DNA of 64,000 bases from an uncultured Pseudomonadales bacterium (GCA_964556485.1 CAZKVV010000001.1:84551-148550); one strand, 5' to 3'; shown: positions 16,699 through 48,804, counted from the first letter of the stretch. A program made the numbers and translations. The notes: a model not told the origin generated them from the letters alone.

Positions 16699-17043
16699 AT
16701 GAGTTTTTCATACTTTGGGAAAAAGAAGGAAAAAATGACTGAACAACCTCCAGTAGACACAACGAATCCCGAACGGCCAGCACCGGGGACACCAGAATAT
16801 GCCTTACTAATGTTCGACGAGGGTGAGGATAGAGATTTTGTTAGAACCTTGTCTACTGAGTTTGAAGAGATTTCTCAGGAAGAAGTGGAACAACGGGTTG
16901 TTGCTTTGCAGCAATTGGCCGAACAACACTTCGAAGCAGTTCGCTCAGAGGCATTAAAAGTTAACGAAGCAGGTAGTAAAATGCTCAGTGGCACCGTGAG
17001 TGTCATTTTGGAGATCCAAAGCATTGGGCAGAGCACAGCGTAG
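16699..17043 (+). CDS. hypothetical acidic protein (114 aa)
   Basis: ORF in the same orientation, 51 nt after ychF. No family recognised. Confidence 0.4.
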   Translation: MSFSYFGKKKEKMTEQPPVDTTNPERPAPGTPEYALLMFDEGEDRDFVRTLSTEFEEISQEEVEQRVVALQQLAEQHFEAVRSEALKVNEAGSKMLSGTVSVILEIQSIGQSTA

Positions 17044-17051
17044 TGCAAGAG

Positions 17052-17534
17052 ATGACGTATGAACAACTGCGTGCATTTGCGACAGAAAATCTGGATACAG
17101 CTTTTTGGACAAGTAGATCTAAAACTTCGCAAAGGCCAAATGAGTGGTCAGATATTCCCGAAGATGAATCCGCAGCCGAGCCGTCTGCCCTTGATAAAGT
17201 TCACTCATTAGCAACTATGGGTGAAATTATTTTTTCACCCTTTACTGGTGAATATGCGGTACTTGTTCCCAGAGTGAATGTAGATGCAGCTAGACTTGAA
17301 CGATTTTCGAAGTTGTTGCAAGCTGTAGCAATTAGCGAGTATGATCGCGGACAAAATGGACATCCAGCTTTTTTTGACAGCTATTTAGAAGAGTTTGTTT
17401 CTTTTGAAGTACGGATTGTTAGAATTAAAACTGAATCCCAGGCGGAAGCTCCTATTTCAGCAGTTGTACATAATACATTACTTGGAAAAGCTAGAGCATG
17501 GGTTGAGAAACAGAGAAATCGATTTAGCAAGTAA
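17052..17534 (+). CDS. hypothetical protein (about 160 aa)
   Basis: ORF abutting the previous one (GTG 17043 overlaps its stop; first ATG at 17052). No family recognised. Confidence 0.45.
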   Translation: MTYEQLRAFATENLDTAFWTSRSKTSQRPNEWSDIPEDESAAEPSALDKVHSLATMGEIIFSPFTGEYAVLVPRVNVDAARLERFSKLLQAVAISEYDRGQNGHPAFFDSYLEEFVSFEVRIVRIKTESQAEAPISAVVHNTLLGKARAWVEKQRNRFSK

Positions 17535-17559
17535 TACGTGTAATTAATAGAAAGTTACT

Positions 17560-18891
17560 ATGAATGGCGATTACAATCAAAGATTTCCATATCGAGATGA
17601 ATCTCAAGGAGGTAAAGTGGAAGTCAGCTCGCCATCTGAGCTCAAAACGCTCTTACATCGGTACTTTGATTTGGATGAATTGAGAGGGCTGTGTTTTGAT
17701 TTTGGAATTGCTTTGACTGAACCACAATATCGCGCTTTAAATGCATTGAATCGAAGCGATCTTGCAGATTATATGGTTAGAGCACTAGAACAATCTGGAA
17801 ATCTGCAACGTTTGCAGGATGCCATTGTAACCCTGCGACCTTTTTTATCTGATGTACAAAAGACAAGTGAGTTGCCATATGCACTTGTTGATAAAAAGTT
17901 ATTACTTCTTAAAAGCGTACTTAATGATAAATTTAATAAAAGCGAGCTTCAGAACCTTTGTTTTGATTTGAACATAGGTTATGAGTCTCTATCAGGTGAA
18001 AGTACATTTGCAAAAATACAGCATCTTATAATCATATGTAACACTACTAATCGCATTGATGAGTTAGTTGACGCAATAGTAGCAGAACGCTCAGAAACTG
18101 GTTTGAAAGAAATCGAAGCACCAGCTCAACCTCAAACCGAAAAGTCTGTTGAAGTTTTAAAACTTCCAAACAGTGTTCTTATCCGTGACTTTTTGATGCA
18201 ATTTTCACTAAAAGAGCTGACAATACTGATGTATTTTTCTGATCTGCCAGTCGGCACGAAAAGTAAACCAAGTATGTGTCTAGAAATTGCTCAATATCTT
18301 CCTAGACATGGTATAGATGAGTATGCGAAATTTTTGCAGGCTTTACACACGTACAAACCAGAGCAGGACTTGGTTGCAGCACAATTACTAACATCGTACG
18401 ATTTACTACCAACTGCTGAAAATAAGAAAATTGCAATTTTCAACACTTTAGTGCAGAAGATTACTACCAAGGTGGCGCTTGACGACGTATGTTTAGATAT
18501 ATTTAAAGTAAAACTTGCTGCAGATCTGTATAGTTACGACAGAAAGTCACCAAATATAGATCTTGGTATAGTACAACTTATGGAATATGTTGTAAGGCAA
18601 GCATATTGCTCTGACATAAATGAATTACCAGCTATTGCTGATGCAGCACTCAATCGGCCTCAAGCTGCAAAAGAATTAAATCAGTTAACAACGCGTCGCG
18701 ATTTTGTTAGTTATGTTAGAGTGCACGCAGTATCGAGCGAAGATTTTAAGAATGTTTGTCTTGCTTTTGATTTAGATCATGAAGATTTAGAAGGTGCAGA
18801 TCCTTATGAAAAAGCACTGTATTTAGTTCAAAAATTGTACTCTCATGGAATGATCTCAACATTTACTCAAAAGATGTCTCAGCTAGTCTAG
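17560..18891 (+). CDS. protein composed of five tandem effector-associated (EAD1-like, Death-like) helical repeats
   Basis: Five repeats of ~80-90 aa, each with the pattern [L/I]xx[L/F]L...F...EL..LCFDL.I.YE.L.G...........L......L.EL...[IL]...RP. Repeat 1 is SELKTLLHRYFDLDELRGLCFDFGIALTE...NLQRLQDAIVTLRP. Repeat 2 is KKLLLLKSVLNDKFNKSELQNLCFDLNIGYESL...RIDELVDAIVAER. Repeats 3-5 are more degenerate (FSLKELTILMYFSDLPVG; VALDDVCLDIFKVKLAADL; SSEDFKNVCLAFDLDHEDLEG). No other domain. Confidence 0.6.
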   Translation: MNGDYNQRFPYRDESQGGKVEVSSPSELKTLLHRYFDLDELRGLCFDFGIALTEPQYRALNALNRSDLADYMVRALEQSGNLQRLQDAIVTLRPFLSDVQKTSELPYALVDKKLLLLKSVLNDKFNKSELQNLCFDLNIGYESLSGESTFAKIQHLIIICNTTNRIDELVDAIVAERSETGLKEIEAPAQPQTEKSVEVLKLPNSVLIRDFLMQFSLKELTILMYFSDLPVGTKSKPSMCLEIAQYLPRHGIDEYAKFLQALHTYKPEQDLVAAQLLTSYDLLPTAENKKIAIFNTLVQKITTKVALDDVCLDIFKVKLAADLYSYDRKSPNIDLGIVQLMEYVVRQAYCSDINELPAIADAALNRPQAAKELNQLTTRRDFVSYVRVHAVSSEDFKNVCLAFDLDHEDLEGADPYEKALYLVQKLYSHGMISTFTQKMSQLV

Positions 18892-20767
18892 CCGCATGCA
18901 AAGCTAACACCTCCCGAGGATCTTCAAGCAGTAATAATGCTAAACAAAACTCCATATGTCGTCTGGTAGTGAAGTCTTCTGATTTTTCATGAGTACTATG
19001 AAAATATGTTTCTGTTGCTGCAAAATATTTTTTTGCTTGCTGAAGAGCTTCTTCTTCAGTTGTGACAGCACCCTCATCCTGATCTAATAGGACACATTTT
19101 GCAATCACACCAATCCATTCACCACCTTTTTTGTTAAGGCTTTTTAATAGCTCTTTATTTGAGAGCAATGGTTTAGCAACTTTTGTTGCAATGTCATATT
19201 CAGCAGTTTTTTGACTAAACCAACGTTTCATTTTCACTAAATCTTGCAAATCATCTTCTTCAAGTGGTGTATTTTCATTACCATTTCTTCCTCGATAATC
19301 TGCTTCGGTTACCAACATTAAAAAATTAAGTGGCAAACCTGCTTCGGTTGCGAGTTTCCGCGCCATTTTTCGCAGTGTGGTGGCACTATCAAATGATGTG
19401 GCCGTGCTACTTGGTTCTCTTGGAAATTCTTGTTTAAACACACCTCCTAACTGCATGTGTTTTGGCACCAGAGCTTCAACTTGCATTTTGGTAGCATTAT
19501 CAATTTTTAATCGATTCAGGAAACGTCTAGTTGGTTCAAGTCCTGCTGCTTCATGTCCAAATGCGCGGTAGTAGCCATCTTTCAATTCAGTAGTGGCGGG
19601 TTTTCCTAGATCGTGACAGAGCATCGTCAACATGAGCACTAGTCGGCGGTCATCAGATAGATTTTCACGCTCGGCAATGAGTGCGGCAGCATCGAGGGTT
19701 TGTAGCGTATGCACCCAGGCATCACCTTCGGGATGAAAGAGTTGATGCTGAGGCGTGCCAATCAAGGCAAAAAATTCAAGCCAGTATTTTTCAATAAAAC
19801 CAATTTCTCTTGCAAATTCTAGACCAACAGATGGTCTGTTACTTTTAAGCAGCATCTTGAGCAACTCATCTCTGACACGTTCAGCTGCAAGTGTATCCAA
19901 TAAACCATCTGCAACCATTTTGGTACAAAGAGCAACGGTCTCTGGAGTAGGCTGCATCTCAAATCGAGCAGTAAACTGCATAATGCGAAGAACTCTGAGT
20001 GGGTCTTCAATAAATGTTTCATTGTCTGTTATGCTTATTTGCTTGCTTTGAAGATCAAGTTTTCCTAAAAATGGGTCATAGAGACTCTTGAGCAGCGGAT
20101 CATAGGAAAGGGCATTCATTTTCAGATCACGACGGCGGCTTGCTACTTTATAATTCATTGAAGGATTAGTAACAGTTTTGAAATCTTTGTGACCAGGCCC
20201 AGTTGAAACATCTGTACGGGTCACTGATACATCAAGTGGTTCAGCAAACCCATCAATGTAGACTTTTATAACACCGAACGACTTACTCACACTATCGATT
20301 TTGCTCTTCGGAAAGGTTTTTGTAAGCACTGCCTGCACTGTTGGCACATCAAGACCATACACTTCAATGTCAAAATCTTTGGGTTTTGGTGTTGTGCCGG
20401 TGAAGTCAGAAAGTACGACGTCGCGAATTATGCCGCCAACGAGCAAAGCACGACCACCAACAGTTTGCACGTTCTTACACAGGTGTAGTACCTCGTCAGG
20501 GATTGTAAATCCAAGTTCTCGTTCTTCTACGTTTGTTTGGGCATCAATGTTTGGAGTAAGGTAGCTCGCGTTGACCCCAGTCAGTTCACTAATAACGAAA
20601 AGAGTAGGGAGTGCAAGGGACGGATCAACGGTGATTAGTTTTTCTTCTTCAGGCAGCGTTACCCCAAAATGCTCCTGCATTATTTTGGAGGTTTCTTGCC
20701 AGCTTTGAATGGTTTCATTTTTCATGTTTAAGCCCATAAGTATACAGGGAGAAGGTGCTTTTGTCAA
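18863..20767 (-). CDS. cca: CCA-adding tRNA nucleotidyltransferase (class II, HD domain) with a ~190-aa C-terminal extension
   Basis: LVGGIIRDVVL (GGxxRD), DFDIEV, RRDLKMNAL (RRD.T.NA) and the HD motif CHDLGK. The 3' end overlaps the convergent EAD gene by 29 nt. Met11 or Met15 may be the true start. Confidence 0.8.
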   Translation of the reverse strand: MTKAPSPCILMGLNMKNETIQSWQETSKIMQEHFGVTLPEEEKLITVDPSLALPTLFVISELTGVNASYLTPNIDAQTNVEERELGFTIPDEVLHLCKNVQTVGGRALLVGGIIRDVVLSDFTGTTPKPKDFDIEVYGLDVPTVQAVLTKTFPKSKIDSVSKSFGVIKVYIDGFAEPLDVSVTRTDVSTGPGHKDFKTVTNPSMNYKVASRRRDLKMNALSYDPLLKSLYDPFLGKLDLQSKQISITDNETFIEDPLRVLRIMQFTARFEMQPTPETVALCTKMVADGLLDTLAAERVRDELLKMLLKSNRPSVGLEFAREIGFIEKYWLEFFALIGTPQHQLFHPEGDAWVHTLQTLDAAALIAERENLSDDRRLVLMLTMLCHDLGKPATTELKDGYYRAFGHEAAGLEPTRRFLNRLKIDNATKMQVEALVPKHMQLGGVFKQEFPREPSSTATSFDSATTLRKMARKLATEAGLPLNFLMLVTEADYRGRNGNENTPLEEDDLQDLVKMKRWFSQKTAEYDIATKVAKPLLSNKELLKSLNKKGGEWIGVIAKCVLLDQDEGAVTTEEEALQQAKKYFAATETYFHSTHEKSEDFTTRRHMEFCLALLLLEDPREVLALHAARLAETSFE

Positions 20768-20779
20768 ATAGTTATAGGC

Positions 20780-20808
20780 TTGACAAAATGAGCATTTTAG
20801 CCTATAAT
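20780..20808 (+). promoter_or_regulatory. consensus sigma70-type promoter (TTGACA-17 nt-TATAAT) for the 21044 gene
   Basis: Exact TTGACA at 20780-20785, a 17-nt spacer, and exact TATAAT at 20803-20808. Predicted TSS near 20815, about 228 nt upstream of ATG 21044. Confidence 0.55.
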
Positions 20809-21043
20809 ATATACGTTGACAGTTTTGCGCCTCGATGCATTTTTGTGTCGAGATCGCGAGACGACAACTATTCTTTAACAGTTGTTTTATATGCTAGAAA
20901 AATGACTTGTGGGAGTGATTTTGGGTTTTTATCTAAAACTTGGAATCATTCCCGCAAGCAGATGTGGGAGTGTCGTCTCCTTAGAGGGGTTTTAAGACGA
21001 AAATTTATTTTTTTCAAGAGGCCAAGCCTCAAAGGAGAAACGC

Positions 21044-22003
21044 ATGAACACTTTAAATCGTTTGGCGCAAGTAAATCAAATTATTTCTGTGGGTAGTGGG
21101 GATGGCGTAGCCACCACTGCAGGTTTTAATGCTTGGATGGGACGCGCTGTCCCAGTTGTTTTCACCCAGGCCTTTGATGTCGACAAGATCGACATCTCTG
21201 GTTGGGAAAAAAATCGCCAGGTGTTATTTATTGACCTGGCAGTCAATAACCAGAATCAAAATATGACGGCTGAATTTGTTCAAAAAATTCAGGCTGCCGG
21301 TCACACTATTGTGGCCATTATCGATGAACACGATGCCCAAGCCTGGCAACAGGTATTGGGCGAGACATGGGACACACTGGCTGTACAGCCAGTGACCCAA
21401 AAAACGGGGCCTATTAAATCTTCCGGTGCTTTGTTGAAATCTGTGCTTGGCACAGAGATGACTGAGCACGTCGCCGAACTGTTTGATGCAGCAGATGCAG
21501 CCGACCGGTTTGATTTTTCAACCCGGTTTGGTCAAATGATTAACCAGGCCGTGAAGTCCAAAATTACGGACAACAAGCGCAGGGTACATTTGGCCGAGTG
21601 GCTTGCTTTTAACAGCGAGCCTGACCAGATGATTCTGGGTTGGATCCAGGAGTATGAAAAAATCCTGGAGAACCATGCTGCTATCATCAAAGAAGCCACA
21701 TGGGTTGTGCAAGGAACAATCATTCGCGTCAACACGACAGACGTCGTGTTTGACATGTCTGGATTGACTGCGGAGCTGTACCGTATGGCTCCGATTGTAA
21801 TTATGGAAGCGAAAGCATTCCACAAACCCGCAGGAGGTCAAATGCCCATGGTGGCAGTTATGACCAACAGAAAGGATTTGGATTTGCTGGCTGCATTAAC
21901 CGATGTTGAAGGCGTTGAACTGTTGGGTGGCTTTGCCTCTAAGGCGAATGTTACTCCGGCAAGTGAAGCTGCTGCAACTGAAGTCGTTAAAAAATTAATC
22001 TAG
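21044..22003 (+). CDS. hypothetical protein (319 aa)
   Basis: Clean ORF with AAAGGAG RBS. No family recognised. Codon usage looks slightly more GC-rich than neighbouring genes. Confidence 0.55.
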   Translation: MNTLNRLAQVNQIISVGSGDGVATTAGFNAWMGRAVPVVFTQAFDVDKIDISGWEKNRQVLFIDLAVNNQNQNMTAEFVQKIQAAGHTIVAIIDEHDAQAWQQVLGETWDTLAVQPVTQKTGPIKSSGALLKSVLGTEMTEHVAELFDAADAADRFDFSTRFGQMINQAVKSKITDNKRRVHLAEWLAFNSEPDQMILGWIQEYEKILENHAAIIKEATWVVQGTIIRVNTTDVVFDMSGLTAELYRMAPIVIMEAKAFHKPAGGQMPMVAVMTNRKDLDLLAALTDVEGVELLGGFASKANVTPASEAAATEVVKKLI

Positions 22004-24955: not shown

Positions 24956-27900
24956 ATGCAACAAGAAGAAAGAGAAACAACTAAAAAACCTGAAAGCAAA
25001 CATGGTGGTCGGGAGCCCTATATCTGGAAAGACGGCGTTGCGCGTGTAGAGCGACCGATGGACATGTATTTGAAAGAAGTTTTAGACAAGCTATCTCAAA
25101 AACAGGTTGTTGTAGTTCAGGCCGAGACTGGAGTGGGCAAGACTTCCAGAATTCCTCAGGCAATCATGGATAGTCAGCCTAATACAAAAATCTACATGAC
25201 TCAGCCAAGACGGTATGCCGTACGGATGAACGCTGGATATATTGCCAGAGAGAAAAAACAACGCTTGGGACAGGATGTTGATTTTACCTTACGCGGTGTT
25301 CCTGGCGAGAATAGCCAAGATAAAAAAGCAAGTCGAGATGCAAAACTTGAGGTCATGATCGACGAAACATTGGTCAATAGAATCTTACGAGAAAAAAAGC
25401 TTCCCGATGGAGTGATTATTGTTGATGAAGCGCACGAGCGGTCGATAAATATTGATCTATTGTTGCTGCTTATTCGTACCTACTTGCCAAACTCTCCGAA
25501 TACAAAAATTCTGATTACCTCAGCAACTATTGATACCCAAAAGTTTAAAGGCTACTTTAAGTATTCTCCAGAAGAGTTGACGGCATATTCTGGCAAAGAG
25601 TCCGAACTCGATTTTGCTGCTGAACCAGTGATTGCCCTCAATGAGAAATTGTTCCGAGTCGAGACAGAAATGATCCACCTAAATTCTGGAGAGCACCATA
25701 CGACAAAGGCAATCGAAACGGCTGTGGAAGTCTTTAAGCAGTTTGTTGTTGGTAAAACAGAAGCTGGGTTAAAAGATCGTGTGCTAGCAGAAGAAGAAAG
25801 AATTTATAGAGAAAAGGGATTTATTAGCTTTTCCGTCCTACCAGTACCTCAACCATTAACCATTCCACCAGAACAAGAAGGTGATGCTCGCATTCCGGTC
25901 GCAGATGGAACTGTTTTGGTTTTCTTACCTGGTAAAGAAGAGATCGCAGAAGGTGTGAGGGTGTTAAAAGAGTATGCAAGAAAAATTGGGTGCTCTGAGT
26001 ATGTCGAGTGTCTCTCGATGTATAGAGGGGTAGATGATGCTGAGAGAAACGCAATTGAGGCCCCAATTGTTCCTGGCAAGTTGCGAGTTATTTTTACTAC
26101 TGAAATTCTTAAATCGTCAGTAACACCAACAAAAACAGTGGTGGTCATCGACTCATTTCAGGTTAAGCGCGATGTTGAAAATGAGCATGGTGTGTCAGTA
26201 CTTAGAAAAGTGTCACAGTCTGGTGCGGAGTCAGAGCAAGCAAAAGGTAGAGGCGGTAGAACAAATACAACGGTCTATAAACCAGTTGTTGGCGGAATTG
26301 ATGAAGTTTTATCAATGCAGGAAGAGTCAGGAGATTATTGGCCACAGCCTGCAATTTTGAGAGAAGGCATAATTTCGGTAACGCTAAAGATGGCTGCTGC
26401 TGGGTTGGATATAAAAACTGCCAAATTGCTTGACAGACCTAATCAGAAAAATGTTGATCGAGCAGTAATTCGTTTGCAACAAATCAATGCACTTGATGAT
26501 GAAGGCAGAATCACGTCGTTTGGCAGAGAGTTGCTGAGATTTTCGATTGCACCAGAGCAAGCCAAAGCGTTATTTGAGGGAGAAAAGCAAGGGGTATTAC
26601 CTGAAAGTATGATTGCGCTAGCTGTAGCCTCAGAGGAAGGCATATTCTCACTTCCTCCAAGAGGAATGAGAGAACTTATTTGTTCGGAGGTTGATCTGCA
26701 ATCTGGGTTAGAGAGATATCTGGCAACAAAGTGGTTGAGGGAGATTCACTATAGTTTTTCTGGAATTGCTCAAGACAGCGGAGAGTTGCAAGAAAAATTC
26801 CAAGCTATTCAGCGAGAAAAGTGGGGAGAAGTTCGACTTGCGTTTAAAGATTCTTATCTGAACTCAGCGCGTTATCCCGTTTATATTAATACTTTGGAAG
26901 CCAAGAATCTTTGGCAACATGTGGAGCAGACGCGCATCTATGATGGTAGGCAAATGATTGATGGATTGTTACTTGATTATGTAAGAGAACTGGTTTTTGA
27001 CAAGCTGAGTTCAAGTTCGATTACCATTCCAACTACTCAAGAATCATTGCACGCTGACCTGATGAAAATCAAAGCTACTATAAATGTCAAACTTACCCAG
27101 TTTGGTGGTGCACCACTGGAAATGCGTTTTAATCCAACTGTCTTGAGCGAGCTAACGTTTCCTTTAGGGTACGGCATTGTTCGTTCGGAGGTGATAAAAC
27201 AAGCTCTGCAATTTAGGGTAGAAAATGAAGATGATATCTTACTTGACGTATTTAATATTCGCTATGATCAAGGATTCTTTAGAGTAAAATCATCTGAGAA
27301 CGATTCATCCATTCCAAATGATTTTTTTAGCACAATTTTGTGTCCCGATTGTAAAGTCAGGAACCGTGATAGCGATCTCGATGAGCATGATTATCGAAAA
27401 CAAATATATGAAAAGAGATGGTTGCAATTTGCACTTGATCAAGATGGTCAGCAAACAAACTCCGATTTTGTTGCATCTGTAAATGCATTTCGAGCCTACA
27501 AACAGGCAAAAAGACAGATGTCCGACAATCAACTTTGGCTTTGGTGCCAGGCAAATGGGCTCAACCTCAAAAAAATGCAGCAAGTTGATACTAGATTAAG
27601 TTATTTGATTGACGAGGTTGAAAAAAGTAGGTTATCACTTTCCGAAAATGTTTCCAGTCGACGTGCATTTTCTTCAGATGCACTTACTAAAGCGATGTTA
27701 GCTGGATTGGCTGCCAATGTTTGTTTTGGTCAATCAGGTCCGGTGGCTCCATTAATCAGTGCATCTAAAGAATCAGCGCTCAATGGTAAGGCTCCTTACT
27801 ATATATTTGGTGGCATCAGAAAATCAGAAATTAAGCCCAGAAAGTTAGAGCATCATCTTCATTTTGCCAGCCTTTGTGCGCCAATAAAGCTGGAGTGGTT

Positions 27901-30628
27901 GGAGGAAATTTCACCACAACTGTGCACCAAAAAAAGAATTGAAAATAGTGCAGCGATAACTCCAGAGGGTGCGGTTAAGTTTAATTTTAACCAGTATTAT
28001 ATTGGTCATCAGTATGAAATGGGCAGTTATGTTGTGGATGGGATCATAGCTCAAGAAGCACTAGCATCATTTATTTTTGCAAAAAAACTGACACATCCAG
28101 ATCATCAGCGGAATCTAGAGGTTATTGCCGAAGCACATTCGGTGTTACTCAGATCAAAGCAGGTTCGAGTTCTCGAGACGCTAGTTGAAGATTGGTATAA
28201 GAGCAAGTTCAAAGGTTTATCGACAGTAGCGGAAATTGAAAACGTTTCGCTTGCGCTCACGCCAGAAATACTCACTGAATTGCTTGGACTCGACTATGCG
28301 AAACTCAAGGCAGAAGTTGAGGCAACTATTCCAGATGAGGTTACAATTAGGGGGGTACAGTATTCAGTAACGTATCGACTTGGCGGCGGCAAGTTTTTTC
28401 AGGATCTTTCCTTGCCAAATACCGTCGCAGCTGAGTTGCTGTTGCATGATTTACCAAATTCTCCACAAGGTTTTGAGCGAACAATTGTTGTTTCCTTTGA
28501 ATCAGGTGCTTCAACAACAAGACGAGTGGTGACGACTGAAGAAAATTTGAAAGAGTTGCAGCAAGAAGTTGAAAAAAAACGAAAAGAATTGGTTTGGCAG
28601 CAATTCATTTCTGCAAATTCAGCGCACTTGAGAAAAACTTATTTCGATTCTGGATATTTTTGGCACGAATCTGCCTCTCAAGATAGAAAAAAAATTATTG
28701 TTGCAGATGGAGATCCTTTACCGCTTGAGGTATTACCAACACAAGCTATATGGGACGAGCAAACTGGTTCACAATGTTACTACTATTTTGAAAGGGATCC
28801 ATATTCATCACTCACTGGATCGAAAGCGTATAACATTAGAGTGTTTAACAATGAGGAAGAGTATTTGGAACGGAAGGCGACAATCAACTCTGAGAGAGAA
28901 GAATTGCTCAGAGAGAAGCAACGAAAAGTGGATGCAGTTCGATTTGAAATGGAAACAAAAGCAATGGTTGCTAGTGCTGATGCCATGCTGAAATCTTTCG
29001 ATCTTAGCCAGCACCTACGATATGGTTTGACAGCAAGGCAGGTGGAGAGCGGCTACTATGCTGACGATGTCGTCAGTTTATTTGCAAGACTACTGGCTGT
29101 GAAAAAAAGTATTGGTTGGTTTAATGGATATTCTGGAACTCCAGATTGGAAAGAAGCCCGACGGTTGATGCTCCAGCTAAATGCAGAACTTACAGAAGCT
29201 CAGGAAAAATATGATTCTCCAGATATAAATGCAAAAACTACGGCTGCATTTATGGGAGAAGAAGCACTTTTCAACTCAGAAGGTTTCACAATTCCGCAAA
29301 AGATTGGCAAGTTGAATGGGGAAATCAATCTTGGCATGCGCCGTTCTCAAGAAAACAATCGTTGGTATTTGGTCATGTCAGATGATGATGGTATTTGGTC
29401 AAACTATAAAGGTGCCTATTCGAGTAGATTCTCAGGAGGATATGAGAGCCAAGGATTATTGCTTCGGGCTGTGAAAGCGCAATTTGCTGAATATGGATAT
29501 TCTTTTGTTCCAGTTGAAAATCTAGCAGTTGCAGAGGTGAGTCCCGAAGCACTGAGAGATTCGCGATTTAGAGACTTGATTTTTCGTCAGTCCGAACATG
29601 AGGGTGTGTTTACTGGGTATCGCTATGTTGATACTCAAGGACCATGGGAGCTGGTATACATGAAAAAAACTGCTGGGACTGAGGGGTGGGAATTGCACTG
29701 TCTTGACTTAGAAACAGGTGAAATTCAAGGTCCTAAGGTTTTTAATGACTCAAGGCAGTTTCGATTTGTGGAGAATTTGAGTGATATTGGTGGGCAAATG
29801 ACACGTCTTGGAGATAGGAGCTTTATAAATCGCACAGATGGTGGTATTACAAATAGTAGGTTTCAAAAGTTAGAAACACTTGAAAGCGGTCTCAAGAGAT
29901 TTATGGGTGGTACAGGTGGTTCAAGTAGGGTGCCGGCTGTATTCGCACCTGAAGTTCGTACTTCTACTAGGAAGCCTGAGCCTCAAAGAGCTCCTGCGGT
30001 TGTTCCACAGCCTGAACCTTTTGTATATCGTAGACCTCCAGATCGAGTCATTGACAGACAAGAGCTCGCCCCAATAGAAAAGGCAAAAATATATGCGTAT
30101 TTGCAAAGCAGCGAAGTGTCGTTGCGAGAAAATATTGCTAAGATTGAATCTGGGAAAGATAGTCAGTCTATTAGACAGACTCCAGAGTGGCGCTCGGCAT
30201 TTATTAAAGCAATGTTAAACCCCGATGGTCTAGCTGCAATTTTAGAGATGAGTTGGAGTTCTGATCTGCTAAAACAGACTACCGATATTTTGACTAAAGC
30301 TGTCAACAGTTGGATTAATGAGTATGAGAGTCGTAGAAATTTTGGTGAAAATTTAGATCAGAAATCATTAGATGAACTGCGAGTTGCCCAGGGTATTTTT
30401 GAGTATGTACAACCAATGCGCTCGTTTATTTCTAGAAATAGAGCAAATATTGCGGATTATGTTGGCGGTGATCGAGAATCAATTACAGCTTTTTATACGG
30501 GGCTTTTGCTGTATTCACAAACAAATGGAGTTGCGGTACTCCATAACAAAACAGTAGTAGATGAGAAAAACAAAAGGAGTGATGAACAGATTATCGAAGA
30601 AGTATTAGATTCAATTCCAATCATCTGA
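24956..30628 (+). CDS. giant DEAH-box (HrpA/HrpB-like, DExH) helicase fusion protein, 1890 aa
   Basis: The N-terminal ~700 aa carry helicase motifs: AETGVGKTS (motif I), VDEAHERSINIDLLL (DEAH, motif II), TSATID (motif III), a helicase-C region (LVFLPGKEEI...), and an HA2/ratchet-like segment (LQQINALDDEGRITSFGRELLRFSIAPEQAKAL). The C-terminal ~1200 aa have no recognisable family. Confidence 0.8.
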   Translation: MQQEERETTKKPESKHGGREPYIWKDGVARVERPMDMYLKEVLDKLSQKQVVVVQAETGVGKTSRIPQAIMDSQPNTKIYMTQPRRYAVRMNAGYIAREKKQRLGQDVDFTLRGVPGENSQDKKASRDAKLEVMIDETLVNRILREKKLPDGVIIVDEAHERSINIDLLLLLIRTYLPNSPNTKILITSATIDTQKFKGYFKYSPEELTAYSGKESELDFAAEPVIALNEKLFRVETEMIHLNSGEHHTTKAIETAVEVFKQFVVGKTEAGLKDRVLAEEERIYREKGFISFSVLPVPQPLTIPPEQEGDARIPVADGTVLVFLPGKEEIAEGVRVLKEYARKIGCSEYVECLSMYRGVDDAERNAIEAPIVPGKLRVIFTTEILKSSVTPTKTVVVIDSFQVKRDVENEHGVSVLRKVSQSGAESEQAKGRGGRTNTTVYKPVVGGIDEVLSMQEESGDYWPQPAILREGIISVTLKMAAAGLDIKTAKLLDRPNQKNVDRAVIRLQQINALDDEGRITSFGRELLRFSIAPEQAKALFEGEKQGVLPESMIALAVASEEGIFSLPPRGMRELICSEVDLQSGLERYLATKWLREIHYSFSGIAQDSGELQEKFQAIQREKWGEVRLAFKDSYLNSARYPVYINTLEAKNLWQHVEQTRIYDGRQMIDGLLLDYVRELVFDKLSSSSITIPTTQESLHADLMKIKATINVKLTQFGGAPLEMRFNPTVLSELTFPLGYGIVRSEVIKQALQFRVENEDDILLDVFNIRYDQGFFRVKSSENDSSIPNDFFSTILCPDCKVRNRDSDLDEHDYRKQIYEKRWLQFALDQDGQQTNSDFVASVNAFRAYKQAKRQMSDNQLWLWCQANGLNLKKMQQVDTRLSYLIDEVEKSRLSLSENVSSRRAFSSDALTKAMLAGLAANVCFGQSGPVAPLISASKESALNGKAPYYIFGGIRKSEIKPRKLEHHLHFASLCAPIKLEWLEEISPQLCTKKRIENSAAITPEGAVKFNFNQYYIGHQYEMGSYVVDGIIAQEALASFIFAKKLTHPDHQRNLEVIAEAHSVLLRSKQVRVLETLVEDWYKSKFKGLSTVAEIENVSLALTPEILTELLGLDYAKLKAEVEATIPDEVTIRGVQYSVTYRLGGGKFFQDLSLPNTVAAELLLHDLPNSPQGFERTIVVSFESGASTTRRVVTTEENLKELQQEVEKKRKELVWQQFISANSAHLRKTYFDSGYFWHESASQDRKKIIVADGDPLPLEVLPTQAIWDEQTGSQCYYYFERDPYSSLTGSKAYNIRVFNNEEEYLERKATINSEREELLREKQRKVDAVRFEMETKAMVASADAMLKSFDLSQHLRYGLTARQVESGYYADDVVSLFARLLAVKKSIGWFNGYSGTPDWKEARRLMLQLNAELTEAQEKYDSPDINAKTTAAFMGEEALFNSEGFTIPQKIGKLNGEINLGMRRSQENNRWYLVMSDDDGIWSNYKGAYSSRFSGGYESQGLLLRAVKAQFAEYGYSFVPVENLAVAEVSPEALRDSRFRDLIFRQSEHEGVFTGYRYVDTQGPWELVYMKKTAGTEGWELHCLDLETGEIQGPKVFNDSRQFRFVENLSDIGGQMTRLGDRSFINRTDGGITNSRFQKLETLESGLKRFMGGTGGSSRVPAVFAPEVRTSTRKPEPQRAPAVVPQPEPFVYRRPPDRVIDRQELAPIEKAKIYAYLQSSEVSLRENIAKIESGKDSQSIRQTPEWRSAFIKAMLNPDGLAAILEMSWSSDLLKQTTDILTKAVNSWINEYESRRNFGENLDQKSLDELRVAQGIFEYVQPMRSFISRNRANIADYVGGDRESITAFYTGLLLYSQTNGVAVLHNKTVVDEKNKRSDEQIIEEVLDSIPII

Positions 30629-36634: not shown

Positions 36635-36774
36635 AGACAGTTATTCTACCATGAAAATGGAGTGGGGCAAGAGTGGGATGTTATAATAGCCCTCGTTCTT
36701 TAACTATCGGCTTTTATCAGCGTTTTACGCTCATCTCTTCGAACAATTGTTCGAAATTCGAAAAAGGAGTAGGA

Positions 36775-37194
36775 ATGAGTTATAACACATTGAGACGAAG
36801 CTTGCTTCTTGTAGGGCTGATAATAGTAGTTGTCATTGGCGTTGTTTTATCCTCTTTGTCTGGATGTAGTGGTGGTGCGCAAGTAGGTGTGTCACCAACT
36901 GTTAGTCCAGATGTAGGGGCGAGTATGGAAGCTGTCCCAACTGCGCGATCACAACCGGTTCAAGATGCGCTTTCGACACCAGAGATACCTCCTAATACCC
37001 CTGCTATGCAGGTGCAGGTATTAGGCGAAGCCGACTTGAGCTTGGTGGTTGGTGTGTCCCGTAGCACTCTCAATTTTAGAGACGTGCTAATCATGCGCGG
37101 CGATGGTAGTTTGCTCAGATGCATGATTATTATTGGCAAAGCGTTTGAGCTGGGTGTCCCAGATTCAATTGCCCAAACGTGCGAACCCCAATAG
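36775..37194 (+). CDS. hypothetical lipoprotein (139 aa)
   Basis: ATG behind AAAAAGGAG. Signal peptide with lipobox LSGC. Confidence 0.5.
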   Translation: MSYNTLRRSLLLVGLIIVVVIGVVLSSLSGCSGGAQVGVSPTVSPDVGASMEAVPTARSQPVQDALSTPEIPPNTPAMQVQVLGEADLSLVVGVSRSTLNFRDVLIMRGDGSLLRCMIIIGKAFELGVPDSIAQTCEPQ

Positions 37195-47945: not shown

Positions 47946-48150
47946 TTATGTATAAAATGCAAGTTTGCGTCCGTTTAAGATTTTCACTTCTTGGCTGAAG
48001 TAGCCTATATAAATTGACATTTCACTCAAATAATGGTATAATGACAGTCTAGTAATGGAGCCCAGTGTGATTTTTCACACTTTTGTTTTTAAGCATGGCG
48101 CCATTTGATTTTTAACAGTGATTTTTTATTTCCCTTAAAGGAGGGACCTC

Positions 48151-48597
48151 ATGACTGATGCAATTATCTCTCAGTGTCCGGCCTGCGCCGCAACAAGCGG
48201 CCAGAAAGTTTGGTTTAATGGCCAAACCCATTGCTCATTTTGTGGAGTTGATTACACCCGATTGGGTGTAGTGCAAACTCCAGTCGTCGCCATCAAGCGG
48301 GCGGTATCCCGCAAAGAAGAGGACGAGAAATTTGGCGCAACCTCAATGTTTTTCGGTTGCGCAACTTTAGCGTTTCTCTGGTTTGTTGGCGCATTTATCA
48401 CAACGATTTTTTCATTTTTGATTGGTGGCATTTTCTTTGGCGCCAATGCAAATGTTGCGTTGGCGATTGGAACCTGCCTTCCCACGGTTGGCATGCTGCT
48501 GTTTTTGGTTGCCACCGTTTACGATGGCACAAAAAACAAAAAGCAGCAGACAGATGGCCAGGCCGTCGAATCTCCCGTCTTAACAGAACCGGAATAA
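48151..48597 (+). CDS. hypothetical membrane protein with N-terminal zinc-ribbon (CPACAA...CSFCG)
   Basis: AAAGGAGGGACCTC-ATG RBS context; Cx2C...Cx2C followed by three TM helices. Confidence 0.5.
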   Translation: MTDAIISQCPACAATSGQKVWFNGQTHCSFCGVDYTRLGVVQTPVVAIKRAVSRKEEDEKFGATSMFFGCATLAFLWFVGAFITTIFSFLIGGIFFGANANVALAIGTCLPTVGMLLFLVATVYDGTKNKKQQTDGQAVESPVLTEPE

Positions 48598-48721: not shown

Positions 48722-48804
48722 GCCGAGGTGGCGGAATGGTAGACGCGTGGGTCTCAAAAACCCATGGGGGCAACTTCATGAGGGTTCGACTCCCTCCCTC
48801 GGCA
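48722..48804 (+). tRNA. tRNA-Leu (anticodon CAA), long variable arm, no encoded 3' CCA
   Basis: Acceptor stem GCCGAGG/CCTCGGC, D-arm, anticodon stem TGGGT/ACCCA with loop CUCAAAA, long variable arm, T-arm GGTTCGACTCC. The sequence after discriminator A is CATAAG. Confidence 0.9.

Follow-up and report, generated by a model that had tools for sequence, protein, structure and literature searches.

Downstream of a consensus promoter on an uncultured bacterium's chromosome lies a leader of about 229 nucleotides (nt) which, in our reading, loads Nus factors (NusB and S10) onto the transcript of a rare DHH-family gene; we give this reading a probability of roughly 55%. The leader and its gene (21044-22003) were studied in a window of 64,000 nt, i.e. 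the whole stretch of DNA analysed (GCA_964556485.1, CAZKVV010000001.1:84551-148550, from an uncultured Pseudomonadales bacterium by its label), to which all coordinates given without a locus name refer. The leader is genuine: it is structured and conserved, acts in cis and is transcribed from a real promoter, and an action on both transcription elongation or termination and translation is plausible. Read from the promoter, its elements would be a 5' hairpin, BoxA, a long helix of RNase III type and, at the 3' end, a domain masking the ribosome-binding site (Table 1). As such, it would join the small class of messenger RNA (mRNA) leaders that bear BoxA, here on an unannotated DHH-fold gene family. 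An initial annotation of the same interval had proposed a riboswitch or an attenuator.

The promoter matches the consensus at 12 of 12 positions on the + strand (TTGACA at 20780-20785, a 17-nt spacer and TATAAT at 20803-20808), precisely as the initial annotation had it, and exact TTGACA-N16-18-TATAAT sites number two in the 64-kb window against 0.01 expected. It is also conserved: the segment TATAGGCTTGACAAA is identical in the window and in two related loci, L001 and L003, and the -10 hexamer follows 17 nt downstream in both. Transcription is predicted to start near 20815, which yields the leader length given above. Back-to-back with this promoter (20739-20808) stands a divergent one on the - strand (20767-20739, 11/12 matches) that serves a CCA-adding-enzyme-like gene (18863-20725), the two -35 hexamers forming an inverted repeat (TTTGTCAA...TTGACAAA).

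The leader has relatives in L001 (the same as L002 and L007; 79% protein identity) and L003 (1 nt apart from L004; 75%), the only two further lineages that are close in protein sequence, closer protein relatives not having been found. Third codon positions of the gene are only 58-66% identical among these lineages, and a BLAST search with the leader aligns just the promoter and the final ~40 nt. The blocks conserved in all three comprise the promoter segment, a 13-nt TCTTTAACAGTTG, an 11-nt TATATGCTAGA and the motif CCUCCUUWGAGGG. Searches with nhmmer recovered the most conserved block from the three lineages only, and no extra copies of the leader were found in viral contigs, in JGI metagenomes (searched with a DNA pattern) or in the rest of the window.

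That most conserved block matches BoxA, the RNA element recognised by NusB/S10 (NusE). The BoxA consensus is GYTCTTTAANA (GYUCUUUAANA in RNA), with the cytosine at position 4 (C4) critical for the association of Nus factors (Baniulyte et al. 2017, PMC5725501), and its known versions include GCUCUUUAACA in ribosomal RNA (rRNA) operons and the validated GUUCUUUAACA of Escherichia coli suhB (PMC5725501). In our leader the motif lies on the transcribed strand, starts 62 nt past the end of the -10 hexamer and precedes the gene, and the version carried by L003 is the same as that of suhB (Table 1). When each of the three full leaders is aligned locally to that of E. coli rrnH, the best-scoring stretch is in every case the boxA segment and its flanks (CAACUAUUCUUUAACAGUU versus CAACUGCUCUUUAACAAUU, for example), at scores that 21-63 of 500 shuffles equal. 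Further likeness to E. coli rrn leaders seen by eye (AAGACGAAAA, UCUUAACGU) was set aside, as local alignment backs the boxA segment only.

The block is conserved at the nucleotide level, since the short reading frame that crosses it undergoes a frameshift in L003 and shows no variation at synonymous sites; a leader peptide across BoxA was on these grounds judged non-coding. The frame in question comprises 20 codons in the window (MHFCVEIARRQLFFNSCFIC, 20835-20897), and its counterparts run to 10 codons in L001, with a ribosome-binding-site-like GGGAG, and to 48 codons in the frameshifted L003.

Across the gene family (51 non-redundant loci, with enrichment counted over 49 lineages) the motif recurs upstream of the gene on the sense strand. 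The exact consensus has 3 matches in 20.3 kb of upstream sequence versus 1 in 379 kb of flanks (p 2e-5), while at most one mismatch with C4 fixed yields 10 matches in 10 lineages versus 1.55 expected (p 5e-6). When the window clade is counted once, 8 matches with at most one mismatch are observed versus 1.34 in dinucleotide shuffles, none of 300 of which reaches 8, and the opposite strand of the same upstream regions holds a single BoxA match. C4 is kept in the window, L001, L003, L011, L021, L043 and L050.

The surroundings of the motif recur as well. A hairpin ends 0-8 nt before it in the window clade, L011, L043, L050 and L060; the 120 nt past it are strongly structured (z <= -5) in the window, L011, L043, L050 and L055; and the whole module of hairpin, BoxA and strong structure is found in the window, L011, L043 and L050. 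The hairpin at the 5' end of the transcript (P1) has a counterpart of unrelated sequence at the same place in L001, L003, L011, L043, L050 and L060, and may be either boxB-like in position or a stabiliser of the 5' end. Upstream regions of the family are altogether more structured than control upstreams (median z -4.45 versus -2.12, p 3e-4). Long hairpins were dismissed as a family-wide trait, being enriched only weakly (p about 0.04-0.05). In a clade of ~48% protein identity (L005, with L008, L009 and L034; L005 3430-3809) the DHH-like gene is the divergent neighbour of the gene for RNase P RNA; its promoter is of the TTGACAAAAT type, and its leader, no longer than about 100 nt, shows no recognisable BoxA.

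The leader as a whole (20815-21060) has a folding energy of -89.4 kcal/mol, compared with -57.2 +/- 4.3 for its shuffles (z -7.43; none of 200 as good), and its long helix (P3) is maintained by covariation. Helices were compared in fixed register with inserts excised, because a MAFFT alignment of the whole leaders had misaligned the blocks. P3 is homologous and in the same register in the window, L001 and L003, with both sides changed in 8 of its 24 pairs; paired cells amount to 90%, a share that falls to 41-59% on sliding the partner strand, and none of 500 shuffles reaches the observed values. P3 holds six G-U pairs and no A-C pair, which points to an RNA of the + strand, and closes on a 5-nt loop (UAUCU). 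Its 5' strand carries UGUGGG, as does E. coli boxC. By its predicted fold it is long enough for an RNase III substrate and is likely an RNase III site. In the outer stem of the next hairpin (P4), 2 of 6 pairs show compensatory changes among the three lineages.

Further downstream, the ribosome-binding site is predicted to be masked. AAGGAG (21032-21037) would be fully paired with the complementary CUCCUU (20977-20982) of P4, with an unpaired probability of about 0; its accessibility (0.026) is the lowest among the window genes compared, none of the 37 comparison genes falling below 0.05, and unmasking it is predicted to cost 9.3 kcal/mol. In the predicted lowest-energy fold the GUG of the second copy of the 10-mer TGTGGGAGTG pairs with CAU at 21042-21044 (the final base of the leader plus the first 2 of the start codon), and in the masked state the 3' strand of the P5 hairpin can pair alternatively with GAGG of P4. 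The masking partner varies by lineage, as L003 uses a different one and L001 is masked in part only. In the distant homologs L019 (2480-2507) and L016 (2470-2501), the segments CUCUUUGAAAGGAG and GUCUCUUUUGAAAGGGAGAC, which resemble the P4 motif of the window (CUCCUUAGAGGGG) and in part BoxA, fold into a small hairpin with the real ribosome-binding site inside it.

These structures might act on the finished transcript only: the 5' hairpin would stabilise the mRNA, the 24-bp helix would be an RNase III site, and CUCCUU:AAGGAG would block translation until processing or refolding, the likeness to BoxA being incidental or part of an internal promoter (TTAACA-17/18-TAGATT). The long, perfect and covarying helix, the least accessible ribosome-binding site among the window genes compared and the structured upstream regions of the family all sit well with this. 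We nevertheless hold it unlikely, for it leaves unexplained why the most conserved block should be BoxA and why the motif should be enriched in a strand-specific manner in unrelated leaders of the family, and masking of the ribosome-binding site relies on different partners in different lineages. As for an internal promoter, scans of L001 and L003 mark the block as promoter-like, with a TG extension, and that of the window marks TTAACA-17-AAAAAT; the -10 of such a promoter, however, is not conserved in the window, where a deletion of 3-4 nt moves the spacing onto another hexamer. A sigma-54 promoter in the block (GG-N10-GC) was rejected, as it fits L001 only.

The tip of P3 differs markedly among the three lineages. 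Where the window has its 5-nt loop, L001 carries an insert of 133 nt and L003 one of 59 nt, and both inserts hold canonical intrinsic terminators (GCGCCAGTAGTTTTGGCGC followed by T6 at 3823-3841 in L001; GGCCCTTTGGGGCC followed by T6 at 621-634 in L003). Terminator and repeated ACAACC motifs are thereby nested together at the helix tip (L001 3713-3896, L003 559-666). Such a nested terminator could define a short RNA of ~190-230 nt or a point of attenuation. For the Nus-loading reading, these are strong intrinsic terminators downstream of BoxA, and they count in its favour. They also lend themselves to another explanation, namely an independent small RNA of ~190-230 nt with ACAACC repeats that ends at the nested terminator in L001 and L003, the gene being expressed by read-through only; the terminators do lie 190-230 nt past the promoter, no convincing promoter was found between them and the gene, and the ACAACC motifs are single-stranded. 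We find a small RNA quite improbable: the window has no terminator before the gene and only the short loop in place of the insert, no copy of the RNA was found away from the DHH-fold gene, and the 3' strand of the helix, which lies beyond the terminator, covaries with the 5' strand, so that the full-length RNA is under selection.

A metabolite riboswitch or an attenuator, in which mutually exclusive terminating and permissive hairpins are selected by a ligand or by a ribosome that translates a leader peptide, is very improbable, even though several of the pairings invoked for it exist. The 10-mer TGTGGGAGTG does occur twice, at 20908-20917 and, one base off the coordinate first claimed, at 20963-20972 (repeats of this kind with at most one mismatch are not rare in the window, 5 being found versus 3.7 expected). 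The segment AATCATTCCC (20944-20953) does pair with the first copy, as part of the longer 24-pair P3 and not as the separate 10-bp hairpin that had been described. Its alternative pairing with the second copy, by contrast, fails: it needs the long helix to be blocked, is about 21 kcal/mol worse and has no counterpart in L003. The stem TCGTCT...AGACGA followed by AAAATTTATTTTTTT is likewise present, and makes a poor terminator: it is worth -7.3 kcal/mol, AAAA separates it from the U-run, L003 lacks the U-run, and a terminator scan flagged no terminator-like site anywhere in 20810-21043.

The upstream hairpin of the initial annotation was found as ACAACT/AGTTGT at 20863-20886, around the conserved block; its register is kept in neither L001 nor L003, for which reason a model with BoxA displayed in its loop was rejected. 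Pairing of the conserved block with the 5' strand of P3 (an 'anti-helix') was likewise abandoned, its -6.2 kcal/mol in the window being no better than that of shuffles; the corresponding energies are -15.7 kcal/mol in L003 and -13.4 kcal/mol in L001.

What the leader shares with riboswitches and attenuators is its length, conservation and structure, possible alternative pairings (the duplicated 10-mer can pair with the same 3' strand), a masked ribosome-binding site, a gene product with a nucleotide-metabolising fold, and the short frames across the conserved block (20835-20897, 20 residues in the window; 10 in L001). It differs from them in that no Rfam family, no conserved multi-stem junction and, in the window, no intrinsic terminator is present. 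The Rfam scan that had been suggested returned nothing at gathering score for the window, L001, L003 or L005, and permissive thresholds gave only noise far below the cut-offs. No riboswitch-type pocket, i.e. unpaired conserved nucleotides framed by covarying stems, was seen in the leader, no in-register covarying stems flank the conserved block, and the unpaired block is here a known protein-binding motif. The frames, as said, do not hold as coding sequence.

Under the Nus-loading reading, NusB-S10 would bind the nascent BoxA and nucleate a Nus complex on RNA polymerase, as in rRNA operons, the suhB 5' untranslated region (UTR) and lambda nutL. The polymerase so modified would cross the long, untranslated, structured leader without early termination and, in L001 and L003, run past the nested terminator. 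The RNA loop between BoxA and polymerase, together with the CUCCUU:AAGGAG pairing, would gate translation initiation, and the long helix, as a likely RNase III site, would modulate this gating as it does in the lambda N leader.

The closest parallels are with systems in which BoxA has been studied. BoxA represses suhB and a Citrobacter koseri gene, and works up to 100 nt from the ribosome-binding site (PMC5725501). Like the suhB 5' UTR, ours is an mRNA leader with a motif equal (GUUCUUUAACA in L003) or near (10/11 in the window, C4 kept) to the validated one, able to act at a distance from the ribosome-binding site, before a gene for a phosphatase-fold protein whose translation would be expected to be repressed. 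Unlike in suhB, where BoxA is no more than 50 nt away from the start codon, the motif lies 137-390 nt upstream and is separated from the gene by a 24-bp helix and other hairpins; the protein has a DHH/DHHA1 and not an inositol-monophosphatase fold, and dependence on Nus factors is putative.

As cited in PMC5725501 (its refs 28 and 29), lambda nutL exerts its effect on N from ~200 nt upstream, with a structured region in the way, and the Nus complex represses translation of the downstream gene; pL-nutL-N resembles our leader in its strong promoter, in a BoxA site ~200 nt upstream and in the structured, RNase III-sensitive region in between. It differs in that the lambda boxB hairpin follows BoxA and is bound by N, whereas our hairpin comes ahead of BoxA, an arrangement shared with rrn leaders; an N-like protein is not evident, and the setting is cellular and not that of a phage. 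Processive antitermination RNAs such as HK022 put and Bacillus EAR act through their fold on the polymerase, or by unknown means, and are not known to carry BoxA; they too are cis-acting structured leaders before terminators to be read through (compare L001 and L003), and have no known resemblance in sequence or structure to the window leader.

For rRNA operons, BoxA is both required and enough for the antitermination complex to assemble, and the long helices formed by rrn leader and trailer carry an RNase III site (PMC10250234). Our leader repeats the rrn order of strong promoter, hairpin, BoxA with its flanks (CAACU..UCUUUAACA.UU) and then the UGUGGG-bearing strand of a long helix, which covaries and has the size of an RNase III substrate (24 bp or more). 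It differs in that the helix encloses 5 nt (59-133 nt in the relatives) instead of 16S rRNA, and that a protein-coding gene follows. The same order (boxB-like hairpin, BoxA, UGUGGG strand, long helix) might suggest a decayed copy of an rrn leader that supplies a strong promoter and whose structures have no regulatory role, which we regard as extremely improbable, since the compensatory changes that keep the pairing of the helix and of P4, and the recurrence of BoxA before family genes whose leaders are otherwise unalignable, argue for ongoing selection.

Several observations weigh against Nus loading. The window motif has A for G at position 1, and matches with at most one mismatch number 10 in the window versus 15.7 expected, so that the single match is not above chance; because it is not rare by itself, the case rests on conservation and on the family-wide enrichment. 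BoxA is recognisable in only about 8-12 of the 49 lineages. It contains TTAACA, and the block therefore also scores as a weak promoter. In a canonical rrn leader, boxC UCUGUGUGGG (at most 2 mismatches) stands 18-19 nt after boxA and a helix of 25-40 bp encloses the rRNA. Here both copies of the 10-mer share only UGUGGG with boxC (6/10), the distance from BoxA to the first copy is about 24 nt as opposed to the 12 nt read between the corresponding elements of E. coli rrnH, and the helix has 24 bp around its 5-nt loop, with no rRNA in the window. Neither nusB nor rpsJ nor rnc was seen in the annotated parts of the window. Finally, the consensus that we used is gammaproteobacterial and may not be that of the host. 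The label of the nearest relative is 'Pseudomonadales', but a gammaproteobacterium is hard to square with the rpsF-ssb gene order, and from this order and the distribution of the family a Patescibacteria-like host is more likely.

Table 1. Features of the promoter, leader and gene (window coordinates), with the BoxA matches of the two related loci
Feature	Position	Strand	Description
Promoter	20773..20808	+	TATAGGC (conserved), -35 TTGACA, 17-nt spacer, -10 TATAAT; 12/12
P1 hairpin	20822..20862	+	5' end of the transcript; -22.3 kcal/mol, z -4.2; ends 8 nt 5' of BoxA
Most conserved block	20865..20898	+	BoxA-like ATTCTTTAACA (20870-20880), then GTTG...TATATGCTAGA; TCTTTAACAGTTG and TATATGCTAGA identical in three lineages
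BoxA match, window	20870-20880	+	ATTCTTTAACA (RNA AUUCUUUAACA); 10/11; G1 -> A; C4 kept
BoxA match, L001			GATCTTTAACA; 10/11; C4 kept
BoxA match, L003			GTTCTTTAACA; 11/11; C4 kept; same as suhB BoxA GUUCUUUAACA
P3 long helix	20903..20960	+	24 contiguous pairs, 20906-20929/20935-20958; loop 20930-20934; -31.9 kcal/mol
Second TGTGGGAGTG copy	20963..20972	+	similar in L001 (UUGUGGAAAC); not in L003
P4 hairpin	20973..21000	+	outer stem UCGUCU/AGACGA; -7.3 kcal/mol alone; holds CUCCUU 20977-20982
U-rich tract TTTATTTTTTT	21004..21014	+	between P4 and P5; terminator tail of the initial annotation; absent in L003
P5 hairpin	21018..21030	+	GAGGC-CAA-GCCUC; directly 5' of the ribosome-binding site; also in L001
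Ribosome-binding site and start codon	21032..21046	+	AAGGAG 21032-21037, ATG 21044-21046; predicted paired with 20974-20982
Gene	21044-22003	+	319-residue protein; two-domain DHH/DHHA1 phosphoesterase fold; rare family

The fold of the encoded protein was recognised from structure. Its AlphaFold2 model has a mean predicted local distance difference test (pLDDT) score of 95.9, and the best Foldseek matches are PggH (7d62), PAP phosphatase (8a8k), DhhP (9r7o), RecJ and NrnA (NanoRNase), with E-values down to 6e-9, a probability of 1.0 and template-modelling (TM) scores of 0.4-0.57. By sequence, DHH-family proteins are defined by the motifs DxD, D, DHH, D and GGGH and by Pfam PF01368/PF02272. The 319-residue protein has no match in Pfam, PHROG or NCBIfam, none of the 30 family members tested matches Pfam, and the DHH motif of 5yh1 is matched weakly in a profile comparison (E 0.06). 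Catalytic competence is plausible because D20, D64, D94-E95-H96 (DEH, not DHH) and D154 are invariant; the C-terminal motif is GGFASKANV. The family is rare, with 53 homologs in a word-index search and 229 cluster representatives among 1.84 billion, and most of its members come from Patescibacteria-type genomes assembled from metagenomes. The G+C content at third codon positions (GC3) of the gene is 0.484, the highest of 17 genes checked (0.26-0.41 for the 16 others), which bears out the GC-richer codon usage reported initially and is compatible with either high expression or foreign origin.

The window itself is bacterial chromosome, with genes for CysRS, HisRS, GlmS, SHMT, RF1, L31, S6-SSB, YchF, RecR and Fur next to many orphan or giant genes. 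A phage origin was rejected on account of such housekeeping neighbours (CysRS, HisRS, GlmS and others) and of the lack of a phage DNA match. Compared with L001, the window has extra genes on both sides of a unit formed by the leader, the DHH gene and a gene of ~900 codons: between ychF and the leader (16699-20767) lie three open reading frames (ORFs), one of which has an EAD7 domain, and the CCA-enzyme gene, and before rpsF (24956-30628) lies a DEAD/HA2 helicase-like gene encoding 1890 residues.

Two other places in the window resemble parts of the leader. The other exact TTGACA-17-TATAAT promoter, with a TG extension, lies within 48014-48153 before an ORF for a 148-residue zinc-ribbon-like protein (a tRNA follows at 48722-48804), and its leader has a terminator-like hairpin (48064-48081) with a T-run. 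Position 48111 is the window's only other occurrence of TTTAACAGT, 69 nt from the -10 as against 66 nt in the leader studied here; the BoxA look-alike after this promoter (GATTTTTAACA, 48107) was rejected for the U at its critical position 4. A near-consensus BoxA (GTTCTTTAACT, 36695-36705, with a mismatch at position 11 only) stands just past a TATAAT. Next comes UUUAUCAG, a succession also seen in the E. coli rrn leader, and then a palindromic hairpin and, behind a ribosome-binding site, a lipoprotein-like ORF (ATG at 36775), the whole unit (36684-36777) diverging from the gene for ribosomal protein L31 on the - strand.

SuhB is a phosphatase-fold Nus factor that is autoregulated through BoxA. 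By analogy, the DHH/DHHA1-fold protein might be a lineage-specific partner of Nus factors and rRNA transcription, or a factor in rRNA maturation, i.e. a SuhB counterpart with an autoregulatory BoxA leader that is conserved across uncultivated, mostly Patescibacteria-like bacteria, an idea that we offer as distinctly doubtful. If the leader does load Nus factors, it would represent a natural design akin to that of lambda N, in which BoxA is joined by a helix of RNase III type and a masked ribosome-binding site. BoxA and the Nus factors were long held to be dedicated to rRNA operons and lambdoid phages, and to our knowledge the validated mRNA targets of BoxA are few, namely suhB and one toxin gene. 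On the same condition, a BoxA leader recurring before one uncharacterised family in poorly known bacteria would carry the Nus regulon beyond the Proteobacteria. It would, moreover, give the first functional lead for this unannotated protein family, in RNA or ribosome biogenesis or as a partner of the Nus complex, and illustrate that a 'riboswitch-like' leader can prove to be a protein-loading site.

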